Of a stretch of 64,000 bases of DNA, positions 11,961 to 37,087 are shown piece after piece. The position numbers and the translations under genes are program-made. How positions within the stretch are numbered: the first letter of the stretch is position 1; each line of letters begins with the position of its first letter. The notes under the pieces are model-generated. The model was not told the DNA's origin, ran no database searches, and saw only the letters and a program-made list of their open reading frames with translations. This DNA comes from Fistulifera solaris (Eukaryota): NCBI GenBank assembly GCA_030295235.1, contig AP026126.1, forward strand, positions 62,001 through 126,000, in the 5' to 3' direction.

Positions 11961-14901
11961 CTATTCGCTTCGCACTTCGACGCCGTATATTTGTCCTTTC
12001 TCCTTATACAGTACAGAGACCACTTGATCAGCGAGGAAAACAAATCCTTCGCGCTCAATGACATACTTTTTCCGCCGCTTGGCCGCTTTCAAGAGCTCCA
12101 GACCGAAGGCCTCCGCTTCCAAGCGACCACTGAGACTCAAATGGGCATGATTCGATTCAAACTTGCCCGTTCCGAGCTTTCGCACCGTCGGTTTGTTGCG
12201 CGCCATTTTTGTGATGCTGGCATCACCGACTTTGATCGTCGATGTGGTCGTGCACACGCAACTAGGATCCATATCTTCTACACCATAGTTATCCGCGGCA
12301 TCATAGTTGACGGTGTATCCCATGTCTTCCAAGGAAGCCACGGTCATTCTTGACAGCACAACTTTACCCCCTTCGTAGCCCGTCATGGATTCTTTTTTTG
12401 AAACATGTCTTATCCGTGAAGCCACAGCCTTCGAGTGGAATGGGCTTGTCGCACCCAGTCAGCTTCTGGTACTCGGCAGTGGCTTTCGAGGATGCAGTAT
12501 ACGAGCACGACGAGAAGGGAGTCTCCTTGACTAATCCATTTTTCTTCCACAGGGCACCGATTCCATACTGAAAGGCAAACAACAAATTAGATATCATTAG
12601 CTTGCACCAAGCAAAACACACAGCCAAAACACTTACAATTCGACCCATTTCGTGCGTCTGCGTTGGATAAAGAAAGCGACGTTTCGGATGAGATAGGGAT
12701 GTTGTCAAAAGTCAGAGTGGGCGTTTCGGTATTCTTATACTTACAATAACAGACTCGAGCATTGACGAGTCAGCCAAATCATCAATATCGGCACTATCAA
12801 GAGTCATGCTTCCAATCACAGGAATAATTTTACTACCGACCCTTGCCCCATACTCTGCTTGTGAATAGCCCAACACTCCGCTGATAGCATCGATATCGCC
12901 CACCGTTGCGCAGATAAAAATGTCGTCGATCGTGTCAGGCAAACTTTTGCATGTCACACCATCTCGTGTATCGTCGGTAACGGAAAGACCAGGCATATCT
13001 CCAACAATAATGGATCCCCATCGATCGGCAGCCACCACAAATGCATCTTGATACGTCTCATCTACATTGGATAAATCAAGGGTTGTCTCAAAACCGGCTT
13101 CCCTCAAATTACCATCATCGGCAGAAGGTTCACTTGATGGAACCTGGCTTGGAAATACGGTAGGAATGATGGATGGAAATTCCGAAGGCGCAATACTTGG
13201 GCTGAATGTTGCAGTGGGTACAGCAGTAGGAACTACGGTGGTGGTGGGTTCGGCAGAAACACTAGGACTCTGAGTGTCAGCTGATGGTGCCGCACTTATA
13301 CTTAAGCTCGGACTTTCGGTCGCGGCACTTGGACTCTGCGTATCAGTGCTTGGACTCGGTGTTGAGCTCGGGCTTTGGGTGTCAGCGCTAGGACTCTGTG
13401 TACCGATACTAGGAGCTGCAGTGGGAGCGGAAGTCGTTGTTTCAGCCTCGGTAGGGGCGGGACTGGAAGTTTCGATTATCTGAGATGAGGGGGGCGCTGA
13501 CACCAACGTAGACGGTGCAAAAGTCCGCGCGACGGATGGAAGCGTAGACGGAGAGATTACCGAAGGACTTGCTGACACACTGGGAGACGTCGTTGGGCTC
13601 AGTGATATTGACGGACCTGGTGTTTCAGTTGAAATTGCGGTTGGGCTTAGTGAAGGCGCCGGTGAAGCACTCTTCTTCGAAGACTTTTTGCTTGATTTGC
13701 TTGATTTACTCGACTGGCTCTTTTGACCTTTTCCACTTTTCTTGCCCTTGCCTGACTTGTCGCTTTTTTCGCCTTTGCCCTCGCTATTTGAATCGCCCTT
13801 ACCCTTTCCACTTTTTTCGCCTTTGCCTTTGCCGCTACTTTCACCTTTGCCGCTTTTCTTACTTTTAAACTCAGTTGTCGGATATGCTGTGCCTGTTGGC
13901 ATAGCTGAGCTAGTGGGCAGAAGGGTGGGCAAGAGAGTGGGGAAATCGGAGGGGTAGAGTCATCATCGTCATTTGAATCGCCCTTGCCCTTTCCGCTCTT
14001 CTTGCCTTTGGCCTTTGCGCTATTTTCACCTTTGCCACTTTTCTTACTTTTCAATTCAATCGACGTCGGGTATGCTGTGCCTGTTGGGATAGCTGAGCTA
14101 GTCGGCAAATAAGTGGGGTAGTCTGAGGGAGTGTCATCGCTGTCCCTTGAGTCGCCTTTGCCCTTGCCACTCTTCTTGCCTTTAGTCTTGGCACTATTTT
14201 CACTTTTGCCTTTGCCGCTTTTTCTTACTCTTCAATTCAATCGTCGTTGGGTATGCTGTGCCTGTTGGGATACCTGAGCTAGTCGGCAAATAAGTGGGGT
14301 AGTCTGAGGGAGTTTCATCGCTGTCACTTGAATCGCCCTTGCCCTTGCCACTCTTCTTGCCTTTTGCTTTTGCACTCGTTTCTCCTTTGCCGCTTTTCTT
14401 ACTCTTCAATTCAATCGTCGTCGGGTATGCTGTGCCTGTTGGGATACCTGAGCTAGTCGGCAAATAAGTGGGGTAGTCTGAGGGAGTTTCATCGCTGTCA
14501 CTTGAATCGCCCTTGCCCTTGCCACTCTTCTTGCCTTTTGCTTTTGCACTCGTTTCTCCTTTGCCGCTTTTCTTACTCTTCAATTCAATCGTCGTCGGGT
14601 ATGCGGTTGATGTTGGCATCGCTGATCCAGTCGGCAGATAAGTGGGTTCAAATGAATTCGTTGGCGAGGGAGTATCGTCGTCGTCGTGTGCTTCAGCGGC
14701 AGCAAGCTCTATGGCCGCTTTCACTTTCTCCGCAACTGTCTGCTGTAGATGGCGTTGTTGAATGAGCTGCTCGTGCGACGGCCTTGTCACCGACGATCGA
14801 CTCGTGCCTTCGATTCCAACATCTTGACTTAAGTCATATCCCCATGCAGCAGTGAAGGCAATCGTCGTCAGCACTAATATATTTTCGATTGAGCGAACCA
14901 T
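11961..14901 (-). CDS. Leishmanolysin-like (M8) protease paralog A, predicted catalytically inactive, with 58-aa tandem repeats and mucin stalk
   Basis: Signal peptide, K/S/G repeats, P/S/T stalk, AADRW..IIVGD and DDIFIC motifs. Introns 12744-12658 and 12636-12568 flank micro-exon THEMGRI. ESMTG Met-turn and conserved C-terminal VLY.E.G module present; several single-base frameshifts. Confidence 0.8.
13800..14650 (-). repeat. Coding tandem repeat, about 5 copies of a 174-bp (58-aa) unit
   Basis: CAATTCAATCG recurs at 14581, 14407, 14233 and 14052, with a degenerate copy near 13867; unit PTYLPTSSGIPTGTAYPTTIELKSKKSGKGETSAKAKGKKSGKGKGDSSDSDETPSDY. Confidence 0.9.
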
Positions 14902-15538
14902 GGTGGTTCTGACTTTAGCTGATTTAACCGTTTCGCGATATCAACCGGCAATGTAAAAGAACTCGTGAGTTTCAGATGTCTGAAGACAAGATGTTTTGAT
15001 TCAACGGCACGCTTTGAATCGTTTCTGTGTTATGGCCGGCTCTCCGATGGTCGTCTACAAGATCGATCAATTTGTGAAGGCGATTTTTTCATTTCAACGC
15101 ATCCGCGAAATTTTTTTTAGTACTACTACTTGACGGTATAGTCATTTCAACACTGCTGTTTTGATTTTTAAATGATGTTCCCGCATCTGACCACTGTGTA
15201 CCGGTAAGATTCGGAAACCACTAATGAATGTGGGGGTGGGATGCACATGCTAAGAGGTCTGAGGAGGAAAAATACCACCACTGCTCGTGCCACATAGCTA
15301 CTCATTCCAACTAACTAGCATCAAACAAAAGCTGAGAGGCTTTAAATTTATTGGGAATCTCTTCATGGCTTAAAGGAGTTTTCGAATTTCTTATGAATAA
15401 CAAGAGCAAGTTCCCTTACTTCACAAACGACGCTCTTCAATTATACAACGAACTATTTCGCAAGTGCGACCTCGGTCTGCGCTTATGATCCTATAACGAC
15501 AATGGAGTACGCTTTCGTTAGCGCGTATGGTCATGCCG

Positions 15539-17701
15539 TTATCTTGTCACCATGACTGTGTATTTGTAGCCATTTTCCATGTAAAGTACAATAATGATTT
15601 GATCACCAATATATTGATCAGCTTGCTCATCCTTGAGGTAGGCGTTCTTCCACTCGTGGTTTGCGTCCAAGATAGCCATTCCGTGGGCCCTAGCAATCCG
15701 CTGGCCTTCTTGGCTGAGCGGAGGTCTGAGACTAGAAGTACTGGTTGTGCTGGTGTGCGATATTGGAAGTTTACCCACGTTATGGTAGGTAAACACTTCA
15801 GGTATGTCACTCTCTGTAGTGCCTTGCAGTTCTCTCCGGTTACAAACACAGTCTGGGCTCATCTTGGACGTATCGAACGGATCCGCTCTCGAGTAGTCCA
15901 CAGTGTACCCAAGGTCGTCTAAGGCGGCGACAGTTAAAATGGATAATTCTAAGCCGTCTGTGCTAAATCCTGTCATGAGTTCACCCAAAAGCAATCTTCG
16001 TCCCAGTGCCCACACTGCGTTCCCGCGCCAAAATTATCTTCCACTGGTATAGAAGCATCGCATCCACTGAGCAATCGATATTGTTCGCTGGCTCGGGAGT
16101 CATAACTGTATGGACATGGAGAAGTTTGCGAAGCAAGATTGTTAACCGCCCACAAAGTGCCGAATCCATACTGAAAACAAAAGGAACTAGGTAAGAGATT
16201 ACCACGTTCATTGATTTGTAACGTTCGTGCTGCTGAAAACTTACCACATGCGCCATTTCGTGTAACTGCAAATCGGTTAGTAAAGGAATCATTGTGTTAG
16301 TGCGGCAGAAATCCATTGTATGACAAAACATTTGTCAACGTACAATCAGGCCTTCTAAAGTGCCAGCTTCAAGTTGTAAGTCCATGTCAGCCTCATCGAA
16401 ATTCATTCCGCCAACCGTAACTGTGATCGTATCGCCGAAGCGAGCAAGTTGAGGGCCTTCAAAAATGAAACAGAGTGTGAGTAGGGTCCATTCGAAGCCA
16501 AAGCAAGTCAAAACGTTTGACAAACCTGCTGTACCAAGCACTCCGAAAGGTCCATCAATAGGTATGATGGAGGCACAAATGAAGATATCGTCAATGACAT
16601 CAGGTAATGTCGAAGGATCGCAATTCAAACCGGGACTGTTCAATACGTCACTATCGACAACCAGGTCTGGCATATCCCCGACTATCACCGTGTCCCAGAT
16701 CCTCGCGGCGTCAATAAATGATGATTGAAATCGATCGGGGACTTGTTCAAGACCGAGTGTTGTATCGAATTCTGAAATTGGTACAGGTGTTGGTTCTGGG
16801 CTCGTGTTGTCCACAGAAGGAGGATCCGTGAGTGCTACTGAAGGTTCGGATGTTCCAGGTGGCGAAGGAGCGACGGTAGAAGTAGGTTCTAGGCTTGGCG
16901 CTGCCGTAATGGTTGGGAAGGAAGTTATCGTTGGTGCGGGACTGGTAGTGACTTCTTGAGAGGGAGCCCCGGTCACTGCTTGCGACGGTGCCGTTGTGTC
17001 TGTGGATGTCGGAGAAGTAGTTGCCGATGGTTCGGGCGTTGTAGGACTTGCTGTCGGACTTTCCGTGTCAATCGATGTGGGAGTAGCCGTGGAAGTTGGT
17101 TCGGCCGTCGTAGGACTTGCTGTTGGACTGGCGGTTGTTGGAGCTGTTGTCGTATCGGCTTGTGGAGTCGCAGTCGGTTCAGAAATAGCGGAGGGCGAAA
17201 CAGTTGGTGAAACGACTGGCGTCGGTACAGGAACTGGGGCTGGGACAACAACCGGACTCGGCACAGGAACATTGGGTGCTGCGACGGGCATTTCCGTCGA
17301 TATCGACACGATAGGACTAGGAGAATGCACAGTAGGAGCCGCAGTGGGTTCATCCACGGATTTTTTCGAGCTCTTTTACCGCTACCTTTACCCGATGATG
17401 GCATAGTGGGTGATGGTGATGCAGAGGCCGATCCTTTGCCTTTGGACGTTTTCTGACTTGTCGTTTTGGAAGTTGTTGGCGAACCTTTTCCGCCCTTGCC
17501 CGAACTTTCCGTTCCTTTCCCTCTTGTTGTTTTCTTACTTGTGGAGTCTGTTTTGGTCGATCCCTTCAAGTACATCAAGTCATTGACAACCTGAACGTTG
17601 AGGTTGCGATCAACACGAAGTGATTCTCGCACATGCCGGGCTTGTGCCGCGGAAAAGCTCGACACGGTCAAGAGAACTGATAACAATCGTTCGGCCTTCA
17701 T
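15539..17701 (-). CDS. Leishmanolysin-like (M8) zinc metalloprotease paralog B
   Basis: Signal peptide MKAERLL..., RNL, K/S/G segment, PT stalk; introns 16525-16457, 16343-16266, 16244-16171; micro-exon LHEMAHV; CGHWDE third His; ELMTG. Confidence 0.88.
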
Positions 17702-18150
17702 GTTTGCTATCTGGATCACAAGAACAAGATAGCTGTTCCAGAAGAAGGCGTGTGTTTTTGAATTTTACTTTGACTTGGGAATGTTGTGACGAGGTTTTTG
17801 TTTTGCGCCAAAAGTGATCCGTTACGGCCAAAAATTCGCCACAACGAAAACCGGTACTCGAAACTCGGCTAAATAGTACACAACCACTCGCGCTTACTCG
17901 CGCGCAATTCATCAACACGTGACCCAACAATGATAAGTGACACGTGACTGCAATGTTACGAAAGGTGTAAAATAGGGAATGCGCCCTAAAGGCTAGAGAG
18001 ACAGAATCATTTCTCAGTAAATCATTCGTAATGACTACGTTTTAGCTGCATTTTATGTTTGTCATTTGAGAAGTTGATCTCCAAGCAGCTACGATTGATT
18101 AGCAAAAACGAAAAAAACTATGAATTTATAGGTGATATCACGGCGTCAAA

Positions 18151-20289
18151 CTACCTCTTCACCATCACAGAGTATTTGTACCCATTTTCCATGTAAAGGA
18201 CAACAATGATCTGATCACCGACATAATGTTCCGCCAAATCGTCTCTCAGATACGCTTTTTTCCACTCATGGTTGGCATTTAAAATGGATAAGCCGTGCGC
18301 TCGTGCGATTCGATTTCCCTCTTCGCTGAGTGGCGGTTTGTGCGATCGTAGATGCGCGTCAGATGCCCATTGCGGAACGTTGCCAACATTTTGGTAAGAG
18401 AAAATGCCAGGGTCATGGCTACCTCTCAACTGTCTCCGATTGTTGCAGACGCAACTCGGACTCATCTGGGACGTATCAAAGGCAGTCGCTTTCGAGTAAT
18501 CGACTGTGTAGCCCAGGTCTTCTAAAGAAGCTATCGATAAAGTGGACAACTCCAAGCCATCGGAACTAGAACCTGTCATGAGTTCACCCAAGAAACAATT
18601 TTCATCCCAGTGCAAACATGCCGTTCCTGCACCAAATTCGTCTTCGACCGGGATGGGCGCGTCGCAGCCGCTGAGTTTTCGATATTCGTCGCTGGCACGA
18701 GAATCCGATTTGTATGGACATGGAGCTGTTCCCGCGGCAAGACCATTTAAATCCCACAATGTACCGAATCCATACTGGATATAAAGGAAAATTTGAGTGA
18801 GAAAACATTGTACGTCAAGGAATGAATTGGACAAGCTATTTGCAACTTACGACATGGGCCATTTCGTGCAGCTGACGATTTGTTGAAGCAGGTACAGAGT
18901 GTCAGAATCTTGGTTGAGAGCATTGCAATATGATAGCACTTCAAGGAACTTACAATCAAGCCTTGCAAAGTACCTTCTTCCCGCTGAAGATCCATATCAG
19001 CTTCATCGAAATTCATAAAGCCAATTGTAGAAGTAATCGTATCTTCAAAGCGGAAAAAAGTTGGCCCGGCTGTCCCCAGGATAGAGTTAGGCCCGTCTAT
19101 CGGCTGCACTGAAGCGCAAATGAAGATGTCGTCAATAACGTCTGGTAATGTCGTTGTATCGCAATTCATATTTGGGCTATTCATTACGGAAGCGTCAACC
19201 ACAAAGTCCGACATATCTCCAACGATGACGCTGTCCCATATTGCTGCGGAATTAACGAATGCTGATTTGAAGCGATCAGCTACTTTGTCTAGATTCAGAG
19301 TCGTCTCAAACGCTCCGGCGATGATTGGAGGAGGCACCACAGGGCGTGAAACGGGAGGAGCTACAGGACGAGGCACAGGCCACGGTACAGGAGGAGCTAC
19401 TGGTCGTGGAACAGGTCGCGGCACAGGGGGTGGCTTGGGGGACCGTGTTGGTGTTTCGATCGGGGAGAGAGTCGGAGGCACAGTTTCGGGTTGCGGAGCA
19501 GCCGTGGGAGATGCAGTTTGTTTTGCAGGAAAAGTCGGCATGCTCGTAGGCGAAGGCAGAGGACTGGGTGTTGTAACAGAAGAAGCCAGCGGGCTTGCTG
19601 TAATAACCGAAGATGCCAATGGGCTTGATGTAGATACTGGCGATGCCACTGGACTTGGCGTAGAAGATACACAATCCGTCTCAGGATAGTCTTTGCTCAT
19701 CTTTTTTGTTTTGCCCAAGTAATGATGGTCTTTGGAGGGTTGTTGCGTCGGCAATACTACAGGAGACGAGGATTTGCCTTTACCTTTTCCTTTTGAATGC
19801 GACTTGGACTTCTTTTTTGGTGAAGAAGTGGGCGATGTTGTCGGTTCGTCTACTTCCTCGAAACTCGGACAGTCTTTGGACTTTTTGGTCGTTGTTTTCT
19901 TCTTTTTATCCTTGTCCAATTCTTCTCGGCCTTCCAGTTTTTTTTGACTTCGAGCTTTTTTGTTTCGGTACCTTTCTGTTTTTACCCTTGCCCAATTCAT
20001 GACGATCATCAAGCTTCTTCGATTGCGACGTTGATTTTGGTGGGGATGATACAGGTTGAGTTGCGACCGGTGTCTGTGTTGGCACTCCAGTTGGCTGTGA
20101 GCTCGAGTCTTCATCTGACTTGAGTTCTTTATCGACCGAATGCGATTTGGATTTTTTCAGCCGCCTTCGGCGAACGGAATCGTTTTCTCCGCGTTGCACA
20201 GCATAGCCACTTCGTCTTGTGGCCCTGGCAGAAACCGACGACAAAGTCGTGAGGGCAGAAAGGATCAGTAGAGCGTTACCAGGTTTCAT
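18151..20289 (-). CDS. Leishmanolysin-like (M8) zinc metalloprotease paralog C
   Basis: Signal peptide MKPGNALL..., RRL, Lys-rich and PV/PR-rich stalk; LGTAGP; micro-exon LHEMAHV (18851-18871); CLHWDE; ELMTG. Confidence 0.88.
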
Positions 20290-20698
20290 CTTGGCGACGC
20301 TCCTGTTCGCATTGGCAATCGTTGCATGTGACGTTCGGTGCTCTTCTTGGTCAAAGATGAATAAGCCCGTGCTTTCAAAATGTGAAGGAAGGCGTTCCGT
20401 CACAAATATTCAAACCGCGCAACGGCATCCGATTTTGAACTGTACCGCATAATGTGTTACTTTTATAGCGGTGAGACACTTACAATTCTTGTTTGCTCGA
20501 GAGGCTGCATAAGGATATAGTACTATAAATTGTACAATAATAATATGTTTCCAGAAAAAAAGTTTTCAAGTCAAGTCCCGACTGAAAGAACATTTGATAG
20601 AAACGCCATTTCCAATTTAAACGATTGCAATGGAACAATGTTCATGAAAACAAATATCACTATTCTACGTATGCATTTTTAAACCTTTCACGCACGCT

Positions 20699-23134
20699 TT
20701 AGGTATCAGACCGAACAACGACGGACTTTACCCCATCATCCCAATACAACACAACAATTACCTTGTCACCTAAGTATACAGAGTTGCCGCCCAAAGCAGC
20801 TGCTCGAAACGATCGCAACTGGGAACGTCCATAATCGATCGCATTCAATCTTGCCGCCGTGGTGGTTTCTGTCTGTAATTGTCGTCGCTCGTTGAAGAAA
20901 ACACCCGCGTTCAAGTTGCGATTCACATTACAATTGCAACTGGGCGCCAACAGAGAAGACGGGTAAGGCGTAGCTTGACTGTAATCTACTGTGTAACCTA
21001 GATCCTCCAAACCCGCTACGGTGATGCGTGAGAGTTCTTGGCTACCTGTGTTGACACCCGTCATGAGTTCGGATTGAAAGCAATCTTCATCCCAATGCAA
21101 GCATTTCGTTCCTTCAGCTCCGTCAGTCTCAATGGGAACAGCTCCATCACAACCACTCAAGGCCCGATACTCTTCACTGGCCTTGGAATCATAGCGATAC
21201 GCACAAATGTCGGTGTTTTCCACCAAAGAGTTGGGTCCCCAAAGCGTACCAATACCGTACTGCAGAATGAATCAGATGTAATTACCGCCAAAGTGAGACA
21301 AACATGTTGCCACAGGAAATACATGAACTTGGAATTGAGGTTACTCACCACATGAGCCATCTCATGAAGCTGAACGAAGAGGGAGAACGATCAGTGAGTT
21401 AGGGTTACGGTTGTCAGACGTTTTATCCGCGCGTCAGTGTGCACCACAACTAGAGTTAGGGATTAAGACAGAAAATCTAGGGTCGAACTTACAATTGTTC
21501 CAGCAAGTTGACCATTTCCATTTAAAATATCAATGTCTGCCAAATCAAACTGCATATATCCCACAGACGTCTGCAAAATTTCTCCACTTCGAGCTGCGAA
21601 AAAACGAATAAGCATGAGTTTGGAGCTAAAAAAGGAGGAAAAATCGATCAAAAATTTTGCCGTTCAATACAACAAAACAAAGCCATCTCTTCATTTAAAA
21701 CAAACCTAAAAGTGGGCCTGCTGAACCGAGAATACCGACTTCCCCGTCGATACTGGGGAGGCTTGAACAAATGAACACATCATCGATAACATCAGGAATA
21801 GTGGATGTATCACAACGTGACCCTGCCGTAGCGCGGTCGGCATCGGTCATGACAAAGTCCTGTAGGTCACCCACAATGACTGTATCCCACCGCGAGGCGG
21901 CGTCGATAAACACTTGGCGATACGCTTCGGGCACTTGATCAAGATTGAGTTCGGTGGTAAAGCCTCCTTCGACACGAGCGAGAGTCGGAGCGCTTGTCGT
22001 AGTGGGACGCAAACTAGGGGGAACACTTGTCGTACTGTTGCTCGTGGGGAAAACGGAAGGAGATTCCGAAGTTGTCGGCGGCAAAGATCGGGAGGGCTGC
22101 ACTGATCCAAAAGGCTGAGCAGTTGACGAAGGTGCTCTCGATGCGGACGGCAGCGCGGTAATGGAAGGAGCTACCGACACGGAAGGTTTACTCGAAGCAA
22201 TAATGTTTGAACTCGGCACCAGAGAAGGCGCCAAGGATGACGAAGGCGAAATACTTGTCGGTACTTGCGAAAGCGTCGGATCCTCGCTTCCGGTTCCTGC
22301 TGACGTTGGTAATTGGCTCAAAGTCGGAGAAAAGCTCGAAGTCGGTGCACCGCTCAAAGCATTAGGCGCGAGTGACGGAGGAACTGAAGACGATGGGGGA
22401 ACTGTTTGAATCTGCGATGATGGAATCAAAGAAGGAGCGATTATGGTTCCAGTCGTAGGGAAAACAGTTGTTGTGGGTCCTTCAGTACCAGCAACCGGAG
22501 GAATTGTGGGCACACCACTCGGGGCCGGAGAAATCGTAGGAGCCGGCGAGACTGTAGGATTCACCGTGCGAGCAGCAAACACACTCAAAAATATTTCCGA
22601 ATAGGTTCCTTCGGGTTTGGGCACCCAACCTCCGGTATACGTTTCAAGGAAGTTTTTGGCTGTTTCTTTAACCTTCTCGGCCGTTACCGGCTGGGCTGTC
22701 TGTTTCTCCACGGGGGCGCGTGTCGGAGCCAGAGTCGTGTCTTCTACTTTCGACCCGACTTCTTCTTCTTCTTCTTTCTCTTCCTCTTTGCTTGCTGCGG
22801 GCTTTTCATTCGCAGGCTTTTCGTTTGCTGGTGACTCGCTCGTGCTCGGGTCACGTTCGCCCGTAAAGATGTTGGTGAAGAGATTAAAGTAGCTACGACC
22901 CGACTCAAATGACGAATCATCAATAACTTCTTCGGTTTTTGTTGTGTCATCCAAAAGCGATTGCAAGTTGAATACATTGAAAAGACGTCGATTGCGGATA
23001 GGTCCTTCCGAATCTCGTGCTGTTGGCACGCTCACATCGTTTCCTTCGCGATTTGTTGGCTTGTCAGCACGCAATAACTCTGCCGAGCTCGGTTGTAGCA
23101 AGAAAGGAAGTAAAAGACGTAGAAGAGGCTTCAT
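20699..23134 (-). CDS. Leishmanolysin-like (M8) zinc metalloprotease paralog D
   Basis: Signal peptide MKPLLRLL..., RRL, acidic segment and S/T/P stalk; intron 21705-21594; micro-exon LHEMAHV (21349-21369); CLHWDE; ELMTG. Confidence 0.88.
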
Positions 23135-23930
23135 GGTTATTAGGCTTGAATAGACTGCTTTCTTTCCATTCTTCTTTGCTACATCGTTGCATGGCGGAGG
23201 ATCCAGCGCAACACGTAAGAAAGATGAAACTGCGTTCAATACCGTTCAAGAAGAGAAGCTGACAAAACAGTCTGACTACCAGTTAACTGTATAGAAGCAA
23301 TGTGTACAGTGCGCAAGAAGCAGTGATAGTAAACACGTGACAAATTCGTAAGATCCAAGATACAAGGCCCTACGTCATATACTTTTCTGATATCAGGAAT
23401 GTGAGCTGTGATTTTTTTATTTAATGAAAAGAGATTTGTTTTCCGAATTCTTCATGTCACCGGCGCGTCAGCAGTGCTCTTCCCTACATTTTTCGTGCTA
23501 CTTTTCATTATGTCTTTTGGTCCCAATAATCTAAAAAATTCAATCGTGCATCTACAGTAGAGTCCAGAGTGTCCAGAGCAACGGTCATTTTCTTAGCCGT
23601 TCCAACTTCCAACAATACAAAGTATAATTACGACTACGATGAACGGAACCAAAAGTACACAGTACCAAGTAAACCTCATCCCTTGTGTGATGCTTGATGC
23701 GTAGCCTCCGTCCGGCGTCGCTTGAGGAGTCTTGCCTGGCAAATAAAATATGTGAAATGCAAAAGCATCATTGTGTTACCCCAACAAGGCGACATGACTC
23801 GAGAAACATCTAGCTTTTCTTATTGGCTGCTGAAAATTCACTTGGAATCGAATCATTTCCGCGGGCATTGAGTGGGGCAATATTGCAAGACTCTGCGAGA
23901 GTTGTCTGTAAACAAACATGGATGTACTTC

Positions 23931-24950: not shown

Positions 24951-25508
24951 AGGATAAATTATTCTTCCGGCAAGTGATGGTACTTCTTCAAGTCGCAGTT
25001 ATCAGATATAGACGTTCACAACAACTGAAGTGTGAAAATTGATCATACAGGAGAAAGGATAGCGCAGATAATGACACTCCAGTAACATTCTCTGCTGATA
25101 GCTCTGTCATGATTTTCGTTTAATGGCCAAATAGCCCCGCATAAATGCGTTTTTTTAAAAAAGAGACTTTCGAGGGGAAAAGGTCATTTCAAATTTTCGT
25201 TCTGGATGTTTTACATTACTTGGAAATTCGAAAACAATTTCCTTTTGACAACGCATCGCTTAGCAATAAAGGATTGCAACGCAATGCAACGCAAGATCTG
25301 GATACTCTTACATGAAACTCAAGCGTCTATCTTCATTGCGATCTCAATTTGTCGTGTACTTGTATTTGCTATGTAGTAATGTATTCAAAAGACAAAGTCG
25401 TAGACCAATTGACAATGAATAAAGAGGGGAAAGAAACAATGTGACTGACTTGGATGAAAAATCTCCATTATGCGGAGTAAGCAATAGCAACAAACAAAAA
25501 GACTTCAG

Positions 25509-28149
25509 TTACGACCAATCTGTCACCAACACAGATTGAACTCGATCGTTGTCCCAATACAATACGACAATCATCTTGTCTTCCAAATAAATTCGATTGA
25601 GATCTCGGCTGATCACGTTGGCGGATCGGGCCGATTTTAACTTGGCTCGTCCGTATTCGATGGCATTCTGTCGAGCCTCTTGACTGGCAGTAGATGGTCT
25701 TTGGACTCGAGTGACTTGATCCTTAAGACTTCGGGTGTTTTCCGCGTTGCAAACACAATTCGGTGACAAGAGATTGGCGGAAAAGGGTGTCGCTTGATTG
25801 TAATCGACTTGATAGCCCAAGTCCTCTAGGGCTGCAATGGAGATACGAGAAAGTTCGAGATCACCTGTGTTGACGCCCGTCATGAGTTCGGATTGAAAGC
25901 AATCTTCATCCCAATGCAAGCATTTTGTGCCCTTTTCTCCGTCTGTTTCAACGGGTACTGGACCATCACAGCCACTTAAAGCCCGATATTCTTCACTGGC
26001 ACGAGAATCATATTTGTACGGACACGAATCTGAATCTTCTGTCAATTTATTCTCGGACCACAAAGTTCCAATTCCGTACTGTGGATTGAGATGTATTGGT
26101 TAGAGAAACACGATTCCTGAGGTTCAGGCCACATTTTTGTTTCAGCGATTACTTACCACGTGGGCCATTTCGTGTAACTGATGATGCGAAACGCCAAAAC
26201 AAGAAACGATGGTTAGTATCCTGCGCAAGTCAATCAATTTTCTTTTTAACCTTTCTTCATGACAAACACACTTACAATAGTACCAGCCAGTTGCCCCTTC
26301 TGCTCCAGAATCTCAACGTCAGCAAGGTCGAACTGCATATATCCGACCGAGGTTTGCACAAAGTCGCCGAAGCGGGCAAAACTTGGCCCCGCTGATCCTA
26401 AAATGCCCCCCACATTATCAATCTCCGGGAGGGAGGCACAAATGTAAACGTCGTCCACTACTTGAGGTATTGATGCAGGATCACAACGAAGATCTGGAAT
26501 AGAAAGCTCTGCTTCGCGAACGACATAGTCCTCCAAGTCACCGACAATCACGCTATCCCATTTGGCAGCTGCGTCGATAAAGATTTGCCGATATCTCTCA
26601 GGCACTTCGTCCAGATTGAGGGCTGTTTCGAAAGATCCTTCTACCTCATTTTGTGTTGTAGCGGTTGTCGGTGCAGCACTGTTGGTCTGATTGGAGGGAG
26701 AAATAAGTGACGGCACTGCCGAAGGCGCATTGGAAAGGACAGGACTAGACGAAGAAGTATTATTGGGGACTGCAGACGGTGCATCTGATGCAGTAGAGCT
26801 AGAAGTTGGCGCTATAGTCCGATTCGTCGGCGTTGAATCATTTGTCGTTGGAATCACGGACGGCGGAGATGAAGCCGTAGAGTCAGTGGTGGGTGCCACA
26901 GTCTCATTACCTGGAGAGTTCACTGTGGGCACCACCGATGGCGACTCCGACAGACGAGTTTCAGTCGGTGCGGGCGTCCTTTCTTGGGTGGAAGCACCGG
27001 AAGGCGCAAAGCTTGGCTGCAATGAGTCCGTTGCCGCACCAATCGGTGCAGAACTTGGCAAACTCGTGTTTTCGATCGTAGGCGTATTTGATGGATGACC
27101 TGAAGGTGCTTGCGATTCTATAGTGCTCGGTCCTGCCGTTGGGTTCTGAGTAACTTCTCTGGGCGGAGAAGTCTGTGTTGTCGTTGGTGCGGCAGTAGGC
27201 ATAAGCCCAGAAGCTCTCGTTGGAGAGGCAGTTTGTGATATCGTGGGCTTCATCGAGGGTAAAACTGTTACTGAAGTCGTTGGCGCTCTCGTGGGCAATG
27301 CGGTACGAGAGCCAGCTGGTGCTTGAGTTACGTTTGGATTTCCTAAACTTGGAGCTCTTGTTGGTCCATCATCGACTTCGGAACTCGTCGGGGAAGCAAA
27401 AGGCCCGTCCGAAAGAATATCACTTTCATTAGCTGTCGGTGCAGGCGTTTTATTTCCACTGTCGGGCGACTTCGATGGAGAGAGACTACTAGCGGGTATC
27501 ACAGAAGGACTTTGGCTTGGAGCAGGAACATCCAAATCGTCTTCCGGTGACTTGTCATCTGAATCCTTATGCTTTTTCGACTTCTTAGAGTACTTTATTG
27601 ACGTTTTTGAGGAATCAACAGACAAAGACGACTTTGACTTTTTGGATTTCTTGGACTTCTTAGAGTCTTTCTTTGATTTCTTTCCACTCAATGATGAATC
27701 ATTGTCATCACTGTGATCCGCATTATTAGTATCGCTGTGATGCTCTTCTTCGTCTTCGGTATTTTCCCCTTCCCCTTGTTGACCTTTGCCTCCTCCTTTT
27801 CCTCACTGAAAATAGACTCCGTGTTGACGGACACTGAATGTGATATATGTGAATGTGATGCCTCTTTCGTAGTCGATCTCGCTGGCTCCGATTTCTTTCC
27901 GCTTTTCCTTCCTTTCGCAGATGGTACGTAGGGCTCAGATGGCGACGGTGAAGTCCCATCCGTTGAGATAGAAACAGCTATTTCTTCGTCATTTGCATCG
28001 TAAAAAGACGTCTCTTTACCTGACGATTTGTTTCTTGTCTGTTGCCGTAATCGTTGTCGTCGTTCGCTATTGTTAATTGTTTTTCCTGATGATAATACTA
28101 GTAGCAGAGAAAGAAAGATCAACGCCAATTCAGCTCTCCTCGACCGCAT
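25509..28149 (-). CDS. Leishmanolysin-like (M8) zinc metalloprotease paralog E
   Basis: Signal peptide MRSRRAELAL..., KKSK repeats, long PT/PS stalk; LGSAGP; micro-exon LHEMAHV (26157-26177); CLHWDE; ELMTG. Confidence 0.88.
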
Positions 28150-28629
28150 GATGATGTTATTTTCACTGCAACAATTTGATAGACAATTGTGACCGGAGAG
28201 CTTGATGAGAAATGAAATGGCAAAATGTGAGGAAGTTGGCCGTTTCAAAACGAAATTTTGGCGCGACCAGTGGAGCGGAAAATTCATTGTTTAGTGCACA
28301 GTGGACTATCTGCATTAATGTACAATGAGATGTTATTTTAGAATGGTTAAAACAGGATAAGGCGTTTCTTGATGTCACACCATTACAAGCACGAGCTAGG
28401 GTAATCAGTGTCATCATTCATCATCCACTCTGGCCTGAATCACTACTTAATTACTCAATACCTTGCATCTCTTCGTTGTGGTCACAATGCCCGACGTCAT
28501 TCAACTTTCTCTGAAACCATATGATAAGACCTATCTTGTTTTTTTTACCTTGTTGTTTTCCAACGAAACCTTTCACGTATCAGAGGCAAAGGAGGAACAC
28601 GTGGAAGATTGAAGGCTCGCTTTCTCCTT

Positions 28630-30782
28630 TCAAGGATCTGGTGTGACTAAGACAGACTGAATGCGCTCATTTTTGTCAAAGTAGAGTACGAGGACAACTT
28701 TGTCTGCCAAAAATATCCTTCGCGGATCGGTGTTCCTCGACATGTGCTCCGCCGAGCGGTGATTATCTTGAAGTTTCTTTTTTCCGTATTGAATGGCCTG
28801 CTCGCGCTCTTTATCACTCGCATCATAACGAAGGGAGCGACGATTATCTTGCCAATGAAAGCTCATTGATACACCATTGGAAAGTTGGAAATCGTTTTCG
28901 TGGACTTGATTGGCGCCGCAGACACAACTCGGGTCCATTTGATCCACAGAATAGGGATCCGCCTGGCTGTAGTCCACTACGTATCCCATATCCTCTAACG
29001 TTGCGATTGAAAGACGAGACAACTCTTGATCGCCTGTGTTGACGCCCGTCATCAGCTCGGTTTGAAAACAGCTTTCAGCCCAATGCAAGCACGCCGTACC
29101 CGCACCGCCGGTCGTTTCAATAGGTACGGCTGTATCACAGCCACTCAGAGCACGATATTCCTCGCTGGCTTTTGAATCATACGAATACGGACAATCGGGA
29201 GTGTCGGTGACCAATCCATTTTGTCCCCAGAGAGTTCCTGTGCCGTACTATATTTCGTTTTAAACCGTTAGAGACGACGAGGACAAGTGAGCAATGTCAG
29301 ATTTTAAAACACAACTCACCACGTGTGCCATTTCATGCAACTGTCAAAAAGACAAAGAGCAGAGGGAGACTGAGTAGAAAATCTGGGTCAACTTATCACG
29401 CAAGGGGTTGTACTTACGATAAGACCGTCTAATCGACCTTGCGTCTCCAGCATTTCAATATCCGCGAGATCGAATTCCATATAACCCACCGCTGTTTGAA
29501 CAAAATCTCCCACTCTTCCAAAGATAGGGCCGGCTGAACCAAGGATAGAGTTAACACCGTCAATGTTTGGAAGTCTTGCGCAAATGAAGACATCGTCGAC
29601 AATTTCGGGCAAGCTATTACCGTCACAAAGGAGCTCTGGATTGGTTCGATCTTCTTCAAAAATTGGATAGTCTTCTAGATCACCGACAATGATGCTATCC
29701 CATTTGGCCGCAGCATTTTGAAAGACACGATGATACTGAGGAGGCACTTGATCCAAATTGAGCGTCGTTTCAAAATCTTCGGTGGGCAAAGCAGCAGGAA
29801 CGGCCGTAGGAGCTTCAGCCGCGGTTGTCGGGGGATTCGTTGAAGATGAAGTTGCAGCAGTAGGAGTACTCGTGCGAGATTCATCCAATGCAGTAGGTAG
29901 ATCTGTTGAGGACGCGATCGCAGCAGTTGGAACGCTCGATAAAGATGTTTCAAGTGAAGTTGGCGCACTTGTTGAAGACGGGCCCAACGGAGTAGGTGCA
30001 GCTGTCGCATCAGTGTTGGAAACAGTCGGTGCACTTGTCGAAGAGACGTCTACAGGAGTTGGTAAAGTTGTCGAAGCTGAATCAAGAGGCGTCGGTGCAC
30101 TCGTCGAGGGGTCGTCTACAGGAGTAGGTGCATTTGTCAAAACTGGATTGGAAACAGTCGGTGCACTCGTCGAGGAGTCGTCTACGAGAGTAGGTGGAGT
30201 TGTCGAAGCTGGATCGAGAAGCGTCGGCGTACTCGTTGGAGCTTGTTGCGTTTCCATTGTCGGACGTGATGTAGGAGCATCTGTAGATGACGTTGGAGGT
30301 GCTGCAGGTGCTAAAGTCGTTGCAGGAACTCGTGTAGGAACCGCATTTTCCATTACAGGAGCCAGAACAGGAGTTTGGATCGGAGCTGTTTCTTCTGTAA
30401 CAGGTGATAATGTGGGCGCAGGACTTAATGTCTCTTTGCTACTGCTTTTCTTGGATTTCTTTTTTCCTTTCCCTTTCCCCTTGGATTTCGAGGAGGAGTA
30501 TTTGCTCCCCTTTCCTTTGCTGCCTTTTCCTCCTTTCCCTTTCGACTTTTTGCTACTAGATGACTTTCCTGCTGCCGTTGTTTTCGTACTGCTATGGGTC
30601 ATATCATGATGCATGGCCGGCGGAGTAATCGAAAGAATATATTCATGCTCCTGGTCATCGAAATTGCCATACGGTGTCGTGGCCTGCAAAGAGCGTTTTC
30701 TTACATGATGAGTTTCACTAGGATGGCGTGTGCTGGCCCATGTGGCTGTCACGAGCAGCGACAAAATTGAGATGGATTTCAT
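28630..30782 (-). CDS. Leishmanolysin-like (M8) zinc metalloprotease paralog F
   Basis: Signal peptide MKSISIL..., RSL, KGKG/KSSK block, STSAPT repeats; LGSAGP; micro-exon LHEMAHV (29320-29340); CLHWAE; ELMTG. Confidence 0.9.
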
Positions 30783-31118
30783 TTGAACCTGACTTGTATG
30801 AACGTGTTTCTTTTATTGCCGTTATCATTGTCTGCTTTCAATGGTAGGCGTTTGAAATGGGTCGAAAAAGTGAACGGTGCGTTTACTGCAAAATTCGAGG
30901 CGTGGCCGGCGTGCTTCAATGTCAGTCGCGCGCGGGTCTACGTTTCTGTCATCCTGAACCTTAATCAGTATACCAACTTTTATGGCAGCCGCAGAAAAAC
31001 TTCGTACCGATGCCTACTTTTTCTGCTATACAGCAGCCAACGAAAAGGATCGCTGGCTTCTTGAATATTCTTCAGTACCTTAACAACAAAAGCAAATACA
31101 TTCCTTCCTTTTGTCAAC

Positions 31119-32351
31119 ATGAAGATTCCTAATCACATTGTTGTATCATTCCTTCTTTCACTTTGCGTCAGTGAAACAAGTGGCTTCATTGCGGTCGCCC
31201 CGCCGCGGTTCTCGTTGACGTTAAAAGCCGCGCGCAATAATACACCCGAGGACAGCAACAGCAAATCGGCGGCCCTCCAAAGTGTTTTGAATCAAATTGA
31301 ACGCAGTTACGGACGTGGTAGCATTTTACAATTAGGAAATGCGGATCTTCCAACGGTCGAATGTCTTAGTACCGGTGCCTTGACGTTGGATATGGCATTG
31401 GGAGGACAGGGTTACCCGAAAGGCCGTGTGGTGGAAATTTACGGCCCCGAGTCGTCGGGAAAAACCACATTGGCGTTACATGCTATAGCCGAATGTCAAA
31501 AGAAGGGAGGTACGGCGGCTTTTATTGATGCGGAACATGCCTTGGATTTGTCGTATGCACAAGCGTTAGGAGTGGATGCTTCGCAATTGTTGTTGTCGCA
31601 ACCGGATTCGGGGGAAATGGCGCTGGATGTTTGTGATCAGTTGATTCGCAGTCGTGCGGTCGATATTGTAGTCATTGATAGTGTTGCGGCTTTGGTACCC
31701 CGTGCTGAACTGGAAGGCAGCATGGGCGATGCGCAAATTGGATTACAAGCCCGTCTCATGAGTAAGGCCTTGCGCAAGTTGACAGGAAGTTTGCATTCCA
31801 GTAATGCCATTGTTATTTTTCTCAATCAACTACGCCAGAAGGTAGGGGTCATTTACGGTAGTCCTGAAGTCACTGCCGGAGGCAATGCGTTGAAATTTTA
31901 TGCTTCGGTTCGACTGGATACTCGGCGACAAGAAATTTTGCCTCCGAACGCTGGAATTCGCATCAAAGTGAAAGTTGTGAAGAACAAAGTTGCTCCGCCG
32001 TTTCGTGTGGTCAACTTGGATATTCTATTTGGAAAAGGCATTGATAGCTGGGGTGATTTGGTTTCGGTGGCGACTGAATTGGGCGTATTAGAGCGCAAGG
32101 GGAGCTGGTACGCTTTGCAAGGCAATAATCTGGCACAAGGAAAACAAAACTTGGTGCAAATATTACAAGAAGACGAAGTATTGCAAGAGAAATTACAAAG
32201 CGCTGTACGAGAAGCTGTTGTCAAGAATATCAAGATGGGTGATACTGGCTCCATCAGCAAGAAGTCGTCCGCAACTGCGTTGTCGGAACCCGTTGGTGAT
32301 ATGGAAGATGGTTCTTACGCGATGGAAGAAGAAGAATTGGATGTTTTTTAA
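31119..32351 (+). CDS. recA: Plastid-targeted bacterial-type RecA recombinase
   Basis: Walker [69 protein letters not shown]-terminal signal peptide ends SG-F and is followed by a transit-like peptide (complex-plastid bipartite leader). Intronless. Confidence 0.97.
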
Positions 32352-32615
32352 GTTTTAATGTATATTGTACTTGTTCTGAACACGTAATGACGCTTTCTGT
32401 TTCCAAATAGAGTAACTTTGACGTTGTCTGCAACCAACGCTTGATAGATAGACTGCGTTGATGAGGCTTTCGCGTAAACAACGTCATGTACCAGATAGCA
32501 ACCATTAATGTTGCTCTCTTGCGTGTGATATATGATTATCAACTAGTCGAGTGAAATCATCCTACGCATGGTTGTCGCGTTGACTCGCTACACATTCTGT
32601 GACATTTACCCTTAG

Positions 32616-34688
32616 CTAATCACCCTGAATTTCGACGGAAAAGATTTCACCGCCTTCGAGGTACAAAATAATGACGGCCTGATCTCCTACATATCTCGCT
32701 GCTAGTTCGGGCGGTAGTTTCGCTTTCAGTTCTTTGTTTTGTAGAAGTAGCTTCTTACCATAATCGAGTGCGATTTGACGACCTTCTTGGCTTAACTTTC
32801 GACTTCGGGTGCCTCGAGTTATCACGTTGGTGTGATTACTTATTAGGTTTTGATCCGAAGGATGGCGTCGAGTTGTCAATTTTTCCTGGCCGGCATCTGC
32901 ACTTCCTCGCTCTACCTTTTCTACTGACTCTTCCGAGGGAACACTGAACAAAGTCGAAACAGAAAATGCTCCAATCTTGAGTACGTTGGATGTACTGCCC
33001 GGTCCTTTCTCCTCGGGTTGATCCTTCGTTTCGTCATCTTTTTCCTGAAGACTGCTGCTGCAAACACAACTTGGGGCCAAATCCGCTGCAGTGTATGGAT
33101 CCGCCGCATCATAGTCTACTACATAACCCATGTCCTCTAGTGATGCCACGGTGATGCGCGATAATGGTAAAGATCCAGTGGAAAAGCCCGTCATGAGTTC
33201 GTCCAACAGACAGTCCTCTTCCCAATGCCCGCATTGCGTACCCGGACCTCCGTCGAATTCAATAGGAACAGCCACACCCGCACATCCACTAATAGCTTGG
33301 AATTCCGCAGACGCCTTTGTGTTGCCATTGTAAGGACACGGGGGAGTCGCAGTGTCCGCCTGAGCACTCGTTTGCAAATTGTTCAGCGTCCACAGAGTAC
33401 CAAGCCCTAGTACGTGACCCATCTCATGGAGCTGTTAAAAAATATCAAGGAGTAAGATTCGTTAGATTCATACACACTTTTGGAGATAATCGAGGAGGAA
33501 AGTTTACGTACGATAACACTTGGCAGAGTGCCGCCCGCTTGGAGCGCTTCCACATCCGCCGAATCGAAACGCATAGCCCCAATGTAAGGAATCGTTGTCG
33601 GCGTAAACCTGGCAAATTCCGGGCCCGCAGATCCCAGTACACCATCGATTCCATCTATACTTTCGACTTTTGCGCAAATGAAGAGATCATCGATTTCGGC
33701 CGGCACCAGAGTACCACAAGAACTTTCGGTGGTCCCCTCGATCGCCGCCAAGTCTCCTATGATCACTTGCGACCAGCGGTCGGCTGCCAACGTAAACACT
33801 TCACGACTTTCCTCGGGTACCTCCGATAAATCCAAGGTAATATCAAATCGGTCCGTTGTGGGCATGATAGTACCAGGACTTGTCGGTAAGATGGTGGACG
33901 ACGGCGGTGCTTCGACGGGTGACATGACCGGAGCTGTGACGGGCGACCCGACTGGAGTTGGTGATATCGGCGCCGGGGCCACGGGAGATGGTACAGGTAC
34001 ATTATCTGGCTCATCGGAAGGAACAATAATGGTAGAGGTGACGGTGGAGCGAAACGCAGGGACCTCTTGCACGTAGTCCTCGACGTACTCTAGCAAGTCC
34101 ACTTTGTCGTCCATAAAGGGGATAATTCTGTCGTTAAAACCTTTGCGGAAACTTTCTTTTCAAAATTGACATGTGCTGTTAAATTGAGCACGTAATTGAA
34201 ACTCCCATGAGCTTGCGAATAAACAATGTCATCCACAAAGGTTAGCTTCACCGAACGAAAGGATTCTTGAAACAGGACATTATCCATGAAAGCGTCTCCG
34301 TAAAAATCTTCCGTAAGACATAACAGGTCGATCACATCATTTAATGGCGGTCTTTCTTTCAAATTTGGTACCATGTAGCCAATCAAGAAGGGTTCGATGG
34401 TGACAGTCCGAACAGGGCCGCCTTGTTTCTTCTTGCCACTCTTTTGCCACTGTTTGATGACTTGAAGGATGATTTTGATTTCTTCGCGTTTGCTTTGACG
34501 CGAAGACCCCCCGCTGTTGACCTTGGTTCTTCTTTACCATTTTGTTTGATCATAACAGTAGCGTTCTTTTGCTTCACAAACAGTTCATCTTGAAAGACAA
34601 GTCGAGCCCCTGTGGCATCTGCCCCTTTCCTACAACATATCGATGCTAAGCAGCAATACAACAACGCTACTTCCCTTCGTCTCAGCAT
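32616..34688 (-). CDS. Leishmanolysin-like (M8) zinc metalloprotease paralog G (extra N-terminal globular domain; no micro-exon)
   Basis: Signal peptide, KKSKSSFKSS, about 110-aa non-repetitive domain, PV stalk; intron 33511-33432 followed by continuous LHEMGHVLGLG; CGHWEE; ELMTG; frameshifts near 34420 and 34120. Confidence 0.85.
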
Positions 34689-35298: not shown

Positions 35299-37087
35299 TT
35301 AACCACGGACTTCAACACCATACAAATGGCCTTCTTCTTCATACAGGACCACCACAATGCGGTCACCGACGTACAGGACGGAATCGTTTTCTTGCACTAT
35401 GCTCTTTCGCTTGATCTTGCGTTCCAAAAGCAACATTTCACCGTATTCGAAGGCCTTGGTGCGGCCAACGTCACTCAACTTTCGTCGGCGGCCGCCTCCC
35501 AGTTGGTTGGTTCCAGTGACCGCAGGACGTGTCGTGATCGTCGCGTTGTTGCTTTTGAACGAATCTTTGCCTTGTAACGCCGCTTCCAGATTACTACATT
35601 GGCAGGTTGGACTCAAATCGGCGGCTGTAAATGGATCCGCAGCAGAGTAGTCCACTTCATATCCCATGTCTTCCATAGAACCAATCGTGACACGCGAAAT
35701 CGGCATGGCTCCCGAAGAAAAGCCTGTCATTAGTTCATCTACGAAACATTCATCGGACCAGTGACTGCATTGTGTACCAGAACCTCCAGTTTGTTCCATG
35801 GGAACCGCTGAAGTGCATCCACTGAGTGTTTGCCATTCAGCATTCGCCTTGGAAGATTCTGAGTAAGAGCATGGTGGGTTGGCACTATTGGTAAAGCCGT
35901 TGATTTCCCAAAGAGTTCCGAAACCGAGAACGTGTCCCATTTCGTGAAGCTGGAGATTGGAGAGCGAAGAAAAAATTTGAGTGTCGCTGAGGTATTAAAA
36001 CTATGTATGGCTCGCTGATGACGAACTTACAATCACCGAAGAAAATGTTCCTTCTGCCTTCAATAGCTCAATATCATCGAGGTCAAACGTCATTTGACCG
36101 ATAGTTGTCGTAAAAGGTTTGGTATCTTGACGTACATACTGTGAAAAAGGTGGGAAAAAGTGAGCGTCGCTTGAAAATCCATATTTTCTTTAACCCCAAG
36201 ATTTATTTACCTCCGGGCCGGCTGAACCGAGCACTCCGCCAACCCCATCATTGGGCTGCAAACTAGCGCAAAGGAAGATATCGTCGATCACTGGAGGCAA
36301 ATTTGGACAGTTCTCACTAACCAGACCAGTGGTATCAACGTCGACAAGGTCACCTACGATCACTTCCTCCCAGCGATTCGCTGCGTCTTCAAATGCCGGT
36401 CGACAGTCCTCAGGAACCGCTGTGAGATCTAACGAAATTCCAAAGTCGATTGCCGTAGGAGTGGCGGTACTTGTTGGGGGCGAGGTCGATGTTGGAATTG
36501 CGGTAACGATCGGTTCGACTGGAGGGGATGTTGCTGTCGGCACTACCGTTGAAGGAGCCGGAGAAGGAACTTCCGTTTCCTCTTCACAGACATCGTCTTT
36601 CTTCTTGCTACCCTTACCGCTACCTTTACCGCTTCCTTTGCCACTAGAGCTGCCACTGTCGCCCTTTCCAGCTTTGCCTGCTTTGCCGCTACTAGCTTTT
36701 CCACCCTTGCCGCTCTTGCTGCTCGGACATTTCTTTCCTTTTCCTTTACCCTTGCCGCTTTTGGAACCTTTACTGCTCTTCTTGCCTTTCCCTTTGCCCG
36801 TTGTTGGACTGAAAGTAAGCGTTGGAGCTAGCGTTGCAGCTGTAGGAAATGCGGTTGCTGTTGGAACGGCCGATGCGGTTGGGTACATACTTTCTAAATC
36901 TTGACTCGAAGACTTTTTTTGACTTGTGCGCGGCCGTTTTGAAGTTGGCACTGGGTAGGACCTCATAGTCTGACAGTTTTGCTCCTCCTCCCCTTCCTCT
37001 TACGTGACTGGTTTCAGCGGCCAAGGAGGACGCGACGAAAGAACATATTGCTAGTGTTGCCGTGGAAGTGCTGATGCGCCCTCGCAT
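35299..37087 (-). CDS. Leishmanolysin-like (M8) zinc metalloprotease paralog H (no micro-exon)
   Basis: Signal peptide, strongly silaffin-like SGKG/KAGK block, PT stalk; introns 36210-36139 and 36030-35950; LHEMGHVLGFG; CSHWSD; ELMTG. Confidence 0.88.

Follow-up and report, generated by a model that had tools for sequence, protein, structure and literature searches.

The 64,000-nucleotide stretch of the Fistulifera solaris genome analysed here (contig AP026126.1, positions 62,001 to 126,000; hereafter the window) harbors between positions 11961 and 37087 eight co-oriented genes (A to H, all on the minus strand) encoding proteins of the leishmanolysin type (MEROPS family M8), an assignment that we regard as practically certain. 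Seven of them (B-H) possess the full zinc site and are predicted to act as zinc-dependent endopeptidases, while in gene A two of the three zinc-binding histidines are lost, so that the gene with the strongest silaffin-like region of the array very probably encodes no protease. As a whole, the sequences are read, with a confidence slightly better than even, as those of stalked surface proteases that are processed at RXL motifs and held by lysine blocks on the wall or mucilage. Gene models obtained by six-frame reading and exon modelling comprise 544-927 amino acids, all eight being free of stops once single-base breaks are bridged, and 17 of the 17 modelled introns (69-123 bases) obey the GT-AG rule. 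In genes A-F the zinc motif resides on a separate micro-exon of 21 nucleotides; G and H have no intron behind the motif.

An earlier note on this DNA had assigned to all copies a compact leishmanolysin-like domain close to bacterial M8-like proteins, and Pfam, the fold match, bacterial matches and a tree agree in this respect. The domain spans 228-236 residues, with pairwise identity of 41-72% among the eight genes. A hidden Markov model search, proposed in the same note, gave Pfam Peptidase_M8 above the cut-off of 21 bits for six of the eight last-exon pieces (23.6-42.8 bits), the pieces of A and B remaining without a match because frameshifts cut them short; the public protein FisN_11Lh309 (P0121) carries PF01457, and NCBIfam gave no family at cut-off for seven proteins. 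The M8 features described in passages of PMC11957388, that is HExxHxxG, a later third histidine and the Met-turn, are present throughout B-H (HExxHxxG and ELMTG in 7/7, the third histidine 53-60 residues on), and the columns of the third histidine and Met-turn are invariant in an alignment of 88 sequences. The AlphaFold model of G, confident at residues 281-520 and 601-664, was superimposed on leishmanolysin 1LML with Z of 20.1 (root-mean-square deviation 3.8 over 246 residues; the next match had Z of 8.3), and Foldseek returned E of 6.6e-8 for the same pair. The protease motifs noted earlier as shared (LGSAGP, HExxH, C.HW, ELMTG) hold for B-H and fail in A, where HEMGR, phenylalanine at the third ligand, LGYSQ and ESMTG are found.

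With leishmanolysin/GP63 (M8, PF01457, 1LML) the array has in common the metzincin fold, HExxHxxG, a long insertion before the third histidine and the Met-turn, as well as signal peptides, tandem gene arrangement and inactive members. However, its domain matches only residues 104-451 of 1LML at 17% identity and holds 8-9 cysteines versus 19; there is neither a glycosylphosphatidylinositol (GPI)-like tail nor a Cys-rich C-terminal domain, the HRC cysteine-switch motif occurs in 0/8 genes, and a Lys block, a Pro/Thr/Ser (PTS) stalk and a distinct C-terminal module are added. Relatives found at E <= 0.001 (5,285 representatives) fall into two sets, one bacterial and marked by Ig-like, PPC or Calx-beta domains, the other containing the named diatom members, both pennate and centric. 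Bacterial leishmanolysin-related zinc metalloendopeptidases (Deinococcus, Planctomycetes, Gemmatimonadota, Nitrococcus) contain the same compact domain, mostly with 40-54% identity over the zinc-site half, but carry Ig-like, PPC, Calx-beta or P domains and lack the module. Among the retrieved relatives, cysteines average 1.7 in module-less proteins versus 6.7 in module-bearing ones. The M8-like proteins of diatoms (Amphora coffeaeformis P0127, Seminavis robusta P0132, Nitzschia inconspicua P0088, Stephanodiscus triporus P0159 and F. solaris FisN_29Lh023 P0372) share the catalytic domain, the PTS stalks and the module preceded by RXL; they differ in being mostly devoid of the Lys block and are annotated as hypothetical or leishmanolysin-like only, with no characterised member in the papers found.

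The suggested comparison with bacterial leishmanolysin-related peptidases was carried out as a quick maximum-likelihood tree of 94 catalytic domains (16 from the arrays, 14 named and 64 taken at random from the rest of 253 full-core proteins). A branch supported at 96 by the Shimodaira-Hasegawa-like approximate likelihood ratio test (SH-aLRT) sets 37 of the 41 module-less rows, all named bacteria included, apart from the remaining sequences and thereby from the array. Since this tree has no root, transfer from bacteria may be considered as a lead only. All 16 array sequences form one branch (SH-aLRT 97), in which every gene pairs with its copy from a second array, and the eight genes therefore stem from local duplication that preceded the divergence of the two arrays; A-F group together (support 93), in line with their shared micro-exon. 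This second array was revealed by a genome search whose 25 matches represent the array of the window, a complete counterpart on contig C5 and six further genes. The second array is about 83% identical to that of the window, with nucleotide identity of about 82-88%; gene order in the two copies is the same, and all intron positions are unchanged. The ratio of nonsynonymous to synonymous substitution rates (dN/dS) between them ranges from 0.02 to 0.41 over all 32 gene regions, with 0.04-0.11 in the catalytic domains of B-H and 0.18 in that of A, and all regions are under purifying selection. Public records also hold fragments with 65-80% identity to A, B, D, F, G and H, so these paralogs are older than this genome. 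The six further family genes, situated on contigs C9, C10, C40 and C41, show no Lys block in their translations. They comprise a tandem pair with a Cys-rich N-terminal domain shared with P0002, P0133 and P0135, and a single gene with a translated first zinc motif that looks altered (SEMGT) in both copies, possibly a second pseudo-protease.

In gene A the zinc motif reads HEMGR, with arginine as a substitute for the second histidine encoded on the micro-exon (12637..12657), the third zinc ligand is replaced by phenylalanine (12418..12420, minus strand) in a loop five residues shorter than in B-F, and LGYSQ and ESMTG stand for LGSAG and ELMTG, respectively. The zinc-site changes, the shortened loop and LGYSQ are identical in both array copies; dN/dS is 0.11-0.26 across the regions of the gene, and its splicing is detected in three sequencing runs. 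Because these two zinc histidines are lost in both copies of a gene that is nevertheless spliced and conserved, A is assigned as a pseudo-protease, with catalytic inactivity predicted at high confidence. Dead M8 copies are not new in themselves, since 9 of 348 parsed relatives lack histidine at the third-ligand position (5 of these look like true substitutions) and T. cruzi has GP63 groups that are inactive, as passages of PMC11957388 state. The whole Lys block of A (13675-14580) contains 15 K[SG][SG]K motifs, a count above all 1000 within-block shuffles, and three overlapping matches to the pentalysine pattern described below, with no RXL inside the repeat region. Its tandem repeat was found only here and in the second array copy, with no stand-alone silaffin donor in the genome (these counts being lower bounds), and none of 240 pattern matches in the metagenome contigs searched for A-related loci was confirmed.

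Putative signal peptides and stalks, both claimed earlier for the entire array, are found in all eight genes. Each N-terminus is hydrophobic, with the best 11-residue Kyte-Doolittle mean of 2.0-3.2 (a measure of hydropathy), and the proteins are in all probability secreted. After residue 40 no stretch exceeds a 19-residue mean hydropathy of 1.63, and by this measure there is no transmembrane or GPI-like tail. PTS content of the stalk amounts to 52-63% in A-F, 41% in H and 31% in G. The RXL motif supposed to follow the signal peptide is confined to A, B, C, D and F and absent from E, G and H (background frames, 40/174); it is positioned upstream of the Lys block and kept in both copies in 5 of 5 cases. 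One member departs from the common layout, as G carries a non-repetitive domain of about 120 residues before a short stalk; this domain is found only in the two array copies, and its Atlas feature score of 0.80 to a SEA cluster is a lead only.

The Lys blocks were searched for a pentalysine pattern, K..K..K.{1,2}K..K, given in a silica-proteome preprint, and by the silaffin-like screen from passages of PMC5501833, which asks for a signal peptide together with paired K[SG][SG]K motifs separated by 1-6 residues; 197 stop-free frames drawn from 400 kb of the same genome, whether or not they encode secreted proteins, served as the background. Pentalysine clusters occur in five of the eight genes (A, C, E, F, H) versus 2/197 background frames, and in the second copy, judged by aligned codons, they persist in A, C, E and H, while the F match was not found. 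Paired K[SG][SG]K motifs are present in 3/8 genes versus 2/197; accordingly A, F and H pass the PMC5501833 screen, with the signal peptide judged by hydropathy only, and B, C, D, E and G fail it. In H the K[SG][SG]K count lies above all 1000 within-block shuffles. For centric diatoms the preprint reports the pentalysine motif in 29% of silica-associated proteins versus 1.5% of background. These counts corroborate the earlier observation that D has no block and that those of A, F and H are the strongest; as for the silaffin-like character as a whole, motif frequency in the array is beyond chance, but the motifs are rare in other diatom members. Two similar genes elsewhere in the genome, at about 2844-3477 (plus strand) and 4870-5635 (minus strand) of C7:800001-810000 (L058), have opposite orientation and strong Lys/Gly blocks before a shared conserved region, with one pentalysine match; they have no relation to the array and are candidates for silaffin-like proteins.

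Silaffins, cingulins and silaffin-like proteins resemble the array in the presence of a signal peptide, N-terminal RXL, KXXK repeats, pentalysine clusters and PT-rich segments. Silaffins have no sequence similarity to other proteins and their peptides are freed from RXL-bounded repeats, whereas the array repeats are not bounded by RXL and are fused to a folded protease domain. Adhesive-trail proteins are marked by PTS regions with CAA or GDPH domains; in the array PTS stalks are present, and neither domain is among the Pfam matches of 15 pieces, which do not cover every N-terminal part.

The conserved C-terminal module reported earlier was found in all eight genes as the last 60 residues or so, and the RXL motif in the linker before it is a new observation. 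This motif is present in 8/8 genes and in 152 of 169 relatives versus 59.8 expected from shuffled linkers. The module itself was detected in 179 of 376 retrieved proteins, in 169 of them with a Met-turn upstream, and when it was searched for alone, 9 of 12 matches carried PF01457. Its model (predicted local distance difference test score 87.5) adopts a helix-helix-hairpin arrangement, for which the best PDB match among 48,161 chains had Z of 4.4, Foldseek gave none at E <= 0.001 and the Atlas no usable match, which is not proof of a new fold. RXL has been put forward as the motif at which diatom wall proteins are processed (passages of PMC5647440 and PMC4557024), and cleavage before the module appears likely from the sequences. 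Most likely, the module is a folding or latency element released at RXL; a released pro-like element would be the simplest reading because the array proteins have no cysteine switch. A complex prediction for the module and the catalytic domain, run without alignments, scored 0.02 and is evidence neither way on their binding.

Taken together, these features lead us to propose a precursor composed of a signal peptide, a short pro-piece ending in RXL (in five genes), a Lys/Ser/Gly block, an O-glycosylated PTS stalk, the catalytic domain, a second RXL and the 60-residue module. The RXL-processing machinery of diatoms would trim both ends, leaving block, stalk and enzyme in one piece. Because there is no transmembrane or GPI-like tail, the polycationic Lys block may stand in for the GPI anchor of trypanosomatid GP63 and tether the enzyme to the anionic cell surface, either the silica wall with its organic casing or acidic mucilage; the stalk would hold the enzyme outward for trimming of extracellular proteins, and differing N-termini could set differing places or residence times. 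Gene A would then be without catalytic function and be retained as a wall protein that serves in binding or structure. The function of the Lys blocks as surface tethers we consider fairly probable and silica targeting of array members plausible, while the entry of at least one member into biosilica through the silica deposition vesicle (SDV) is rather doubtful.

Several observations weigh against surface tethering and against the status ascribed to A. D has no Lys block at all, and those of B and G contain only 5-6 lysines. The pentalysine match of F was reached by 525 of 1000 within-block shuffles, so composition explains it, and the enrichment is overstated because the background extends beyond secreted proteins and the array genes are paralogs of one another. 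Two other genes with Lys/Gly blocks in the 400 kb of background indicate that such blocks are not special to the array. Only 2 of 58 module-bearing relatives, many of them N-terminally truncated, contain a pentalysine cluster; thus the blocks are a feature of this array and not of the family, and with most relatives lacking them tethering cannot be the core function of the family. For its part, A retains the first histidine, the glutamate and the Met-turn, and its 65%-identical ortholog (P0343) keeps the third histidine with an equally short loop.

If the Lys blocks were true pentalysine targeting signals, the proteins could be SDV enzymes that process or trim the organic matrix of biosilica, possibly including the RXL endopeptidase itself, with A as a silaffin-like scaffold. 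Pentalysine enrichment in the array speaks for this, as does the resemblance of the 58-aa KXXK repeats of A to the 53-aa KXXK repeats of a T. pseudonana silaffin-cluster gene; RXL is described as typical of biosilica proteins in passages of PMC5647440 and PMC4557024, and an RXL endopeptidase is proposed, though not identified, in those of PMC5501833 and PMC4557024. The earlier note had pointed to biosilica and adhesive-trail proteomes. No M8 is among the known domains named in the parts available for 92 silica-associated proteins of three centric diatoms, the proteases named in silica proteomes or silicon-responsive clusters are serine-type or unspecified, and the main text of the adhesive-trail protein preprint, as far as available, mentions no protease or peptidase. 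A diatom-wide maturase should, moreover, keep its targeting signal, and most relatives are without it. Metzincins are usually active near neutral pH. The SDV lumen is acidic, and on balance a role inside this compartment seems unlikely.

Equally improbable, in our estimate, are ordinary secreted proteases for scavenging or defence, with the variable N-termini of low complexity serving as generic glycosylated spacers devoid of a targeting role and A as a decoy or slowly decaying copy. Leishmanolysins do rank in the top ten of enriched secretome groups in the heterotrophic diatom Nitzschia putrida, for which substrate degradation was proposed (the supplement of that work gave no match for the family name), and the metalloprotease repertoire of F. 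solaris is among the two largest in 46 stramenopiles, 53% with signal peptides. The six family genes without Lys block in the same genome fit this explanation as well, and so does the occurrence of tandem arrays and inactive members in trypanosome GP63 (passages of PMC11957388). However, spacers of generic nature agree poorly with the conservation of Lys-block regions between the copies (dN/dS of 0.07 in H and 0.11 in A) and with K[SG][SG]K counts in A and H exceeding 1000/1000 shuffles. Were it true, the locus would represent an ordinary lineage-specific expansion.

Only D and F are frame-intact in this assembly, the other six genes being frameshifted. Contigs from four public runs were placed on positions 11900-31800, a stretch beyond which G and H lie. 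Compensating indels were found in these contigs for 3/3 breaks of A, 2/2 of B and 1/1 of C, three of the six being present in all or most of the four runs; the contig overlying the break of E has one gap, its place not being displayed. Bridged G differs from FisN_11Lh309 only in two residues that are X at the breaks. The second copies of B and C are frame-intact, and the breaks of G and H recur there at the same positions. Thus the frameshifts in A, B, C and G are assembly errors, that of E is likely to be one, and for H, interrupted by one base at an A7 run, an error is inferred because dN/dS over that region is 0.07. Spliced joints agree with the introns modelled for A (runs X2, X3 and X4), B (X3), D (X4) and F (X2, both introns); both introns of A are seen in contigs, and in X3 its micro-exon is spliced on both sides. 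Such joints imply that X2-X4 hold RNA, no run being recorded as such, and the D joint possibly originates from the second copy because contigs there carry 12-17 differences. For C or E no splice joints are listed among the contigs of the four runs, nor is a joint skipping the micro-exon, which contigs cannot show to be absent, and contig depth cannot rank the genes by expression. Skipping of the micro-exon in A-F would yield an in-frame isoform that is catalytically dead. That the locus consists largely of pseudogenes or reflects an artefact of assembly, being a duplicated but broken segment without common function, might be suspected from six frameshifted genes out of eight and the recurring breaks of G and H, yet this is most improbable and was dismissed, as short-read contigs remove all six breaks of A, B and C, the public G protein is intact, the bridged models are stop-free and dN/dS is well below 1.

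Table 1. Positions of the array genes and associated features within the window.
Feature	Position	Strand	Details
Gene A	11961..14901	-	927-aa pseudo-protease; exons 14901-12745, 12657-12637, 12567-11961
Gene A tandem repeat	13968..14646	-	174 bp (58 aa) x 3.9, 90% match; Lys/Ser/Gly blocks alternating with acidic and Pro/Thr/Tyr segments
Gene B	15539..17701	-	647 aa; zinc site intact; exons 17701-16526, 16456-16344, 16265-16245, 16170-15539
Gene C	18151..20289	-	659 aa; zinc site intact; one pentalysine match; exons 20289-18954, 18871-18851, 18774-18151
Gene D	20699..23134	-	703 aa; zinc site intact; no Lys block; exons 23134-21706, 21593-21493, 21369-21349, 21259-20699
Gene E	25509..28149	-	821 aa; zinc site intact; KKSK-type Lys block 27566-27915; 13 N-glycosylation sequons; exons 28149-26276, 26177-26157, 26078-25509
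Gene F	28630..30782	-	667 aa; frame-intact; Lys block 30447-30551; 66-bp stalk repeats 29989-30236; exons 30782-29418, 29340-29320, 29247-28630
recA-type gene	31119..32351	+	between F and G, outside the protease family; Pfam RecA E 4.9e-122; equivalent position in second copy
Gene G	32616..34688	-	664 aa = FisN_11Lh309 (662/664 residues identical to public protein); exons 34688-33512, 33431-32616
C-terminal module, shown for G	32619..32816	-	last ~60 codons of every gene; long helix, short helix, beta-hairpin
Gene G N-terminal domain	34093..34431	-	non-repetitive, weakly SEA-like; low-confidence alpha/beta model
Gene H	35299..37087	-	544 aa; zinc site intact; Lys/Gly/Ser block 36604-36925 with 6 K[SG][SG]K; exons 37087-36211, 36138-36031, 35949-35299
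Zinc-motif micro-exons of A-F	12637-12657, 16245-16265, 18851-18871, 21349-21369, 26157-26177, 29320-29340	-	flanked by two phase-0 introns

The eight related genes of the earlier note stand, but other genes interrupt their run, with the recA-type one separating F from G and a broken one separating D from E. The broken gene (23934-24938, minus strand) corresponds in the second array to an open frame of 534 codons (C5:121018-122619), with nucleotide identity of only about 66%, far below that of the neighbours. The RecA encoded at 31119-32351 (plus strand), located at the F-G position in both arrays, is bacterial-type and has an N-terminal extension that by its sequence resembles a plastid-targeting presequence. 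Two kb downstream of the array (7787-9751, minus strand) lies a glucosamine-6-phosphate synthase-like gene with Glutamine amidotransferase and SIS domains. Upstream neighbours at 38153-40461 are, as we take from their motifs, a UPF0016/GDT1-type transporter-like gene (minus strand) and a lipoate-protein ligase-like gene (plus strand).

Leishmanolysin-like genes of diatoms are already known at the level of annotation. The array, the fusion with Lys blocks, the RXL-bounded module, the dead copy and any diatom M8 in biosilica were not found in the mainly open literature searched, proteome supplementary tables lying outside that search and possibly holding members. Few of the proteases maturing and remodelling diatom wall and mucilage have been identified, and the module conserved behind RXL across diatom M8-like proteins is undescribed in the papers found. 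The locus offers a natural series on one catalytic scaffold, from no Lys block (D) over short (B, G) and pentalysine-bearing ones (C, E, F, H) to the repeat-rich dead copy (A), and thus targeting by Lys clusters becomes directly testable in a pennate diatom. One may go further and suppose, as a long shot suggested by these sequences, a compact diatom M8 subfamily gated by an RXL-released module of an undescribed family, within which the Fistulifera array would have gained pentalysine silica-targeting blocks and A, upon loss of its zinc site, would have turned into a silaffin-like structural protein on a dead protease fold. If this were true, gene A would be a diatom parallel to the protease-derived silicatein of sponges.

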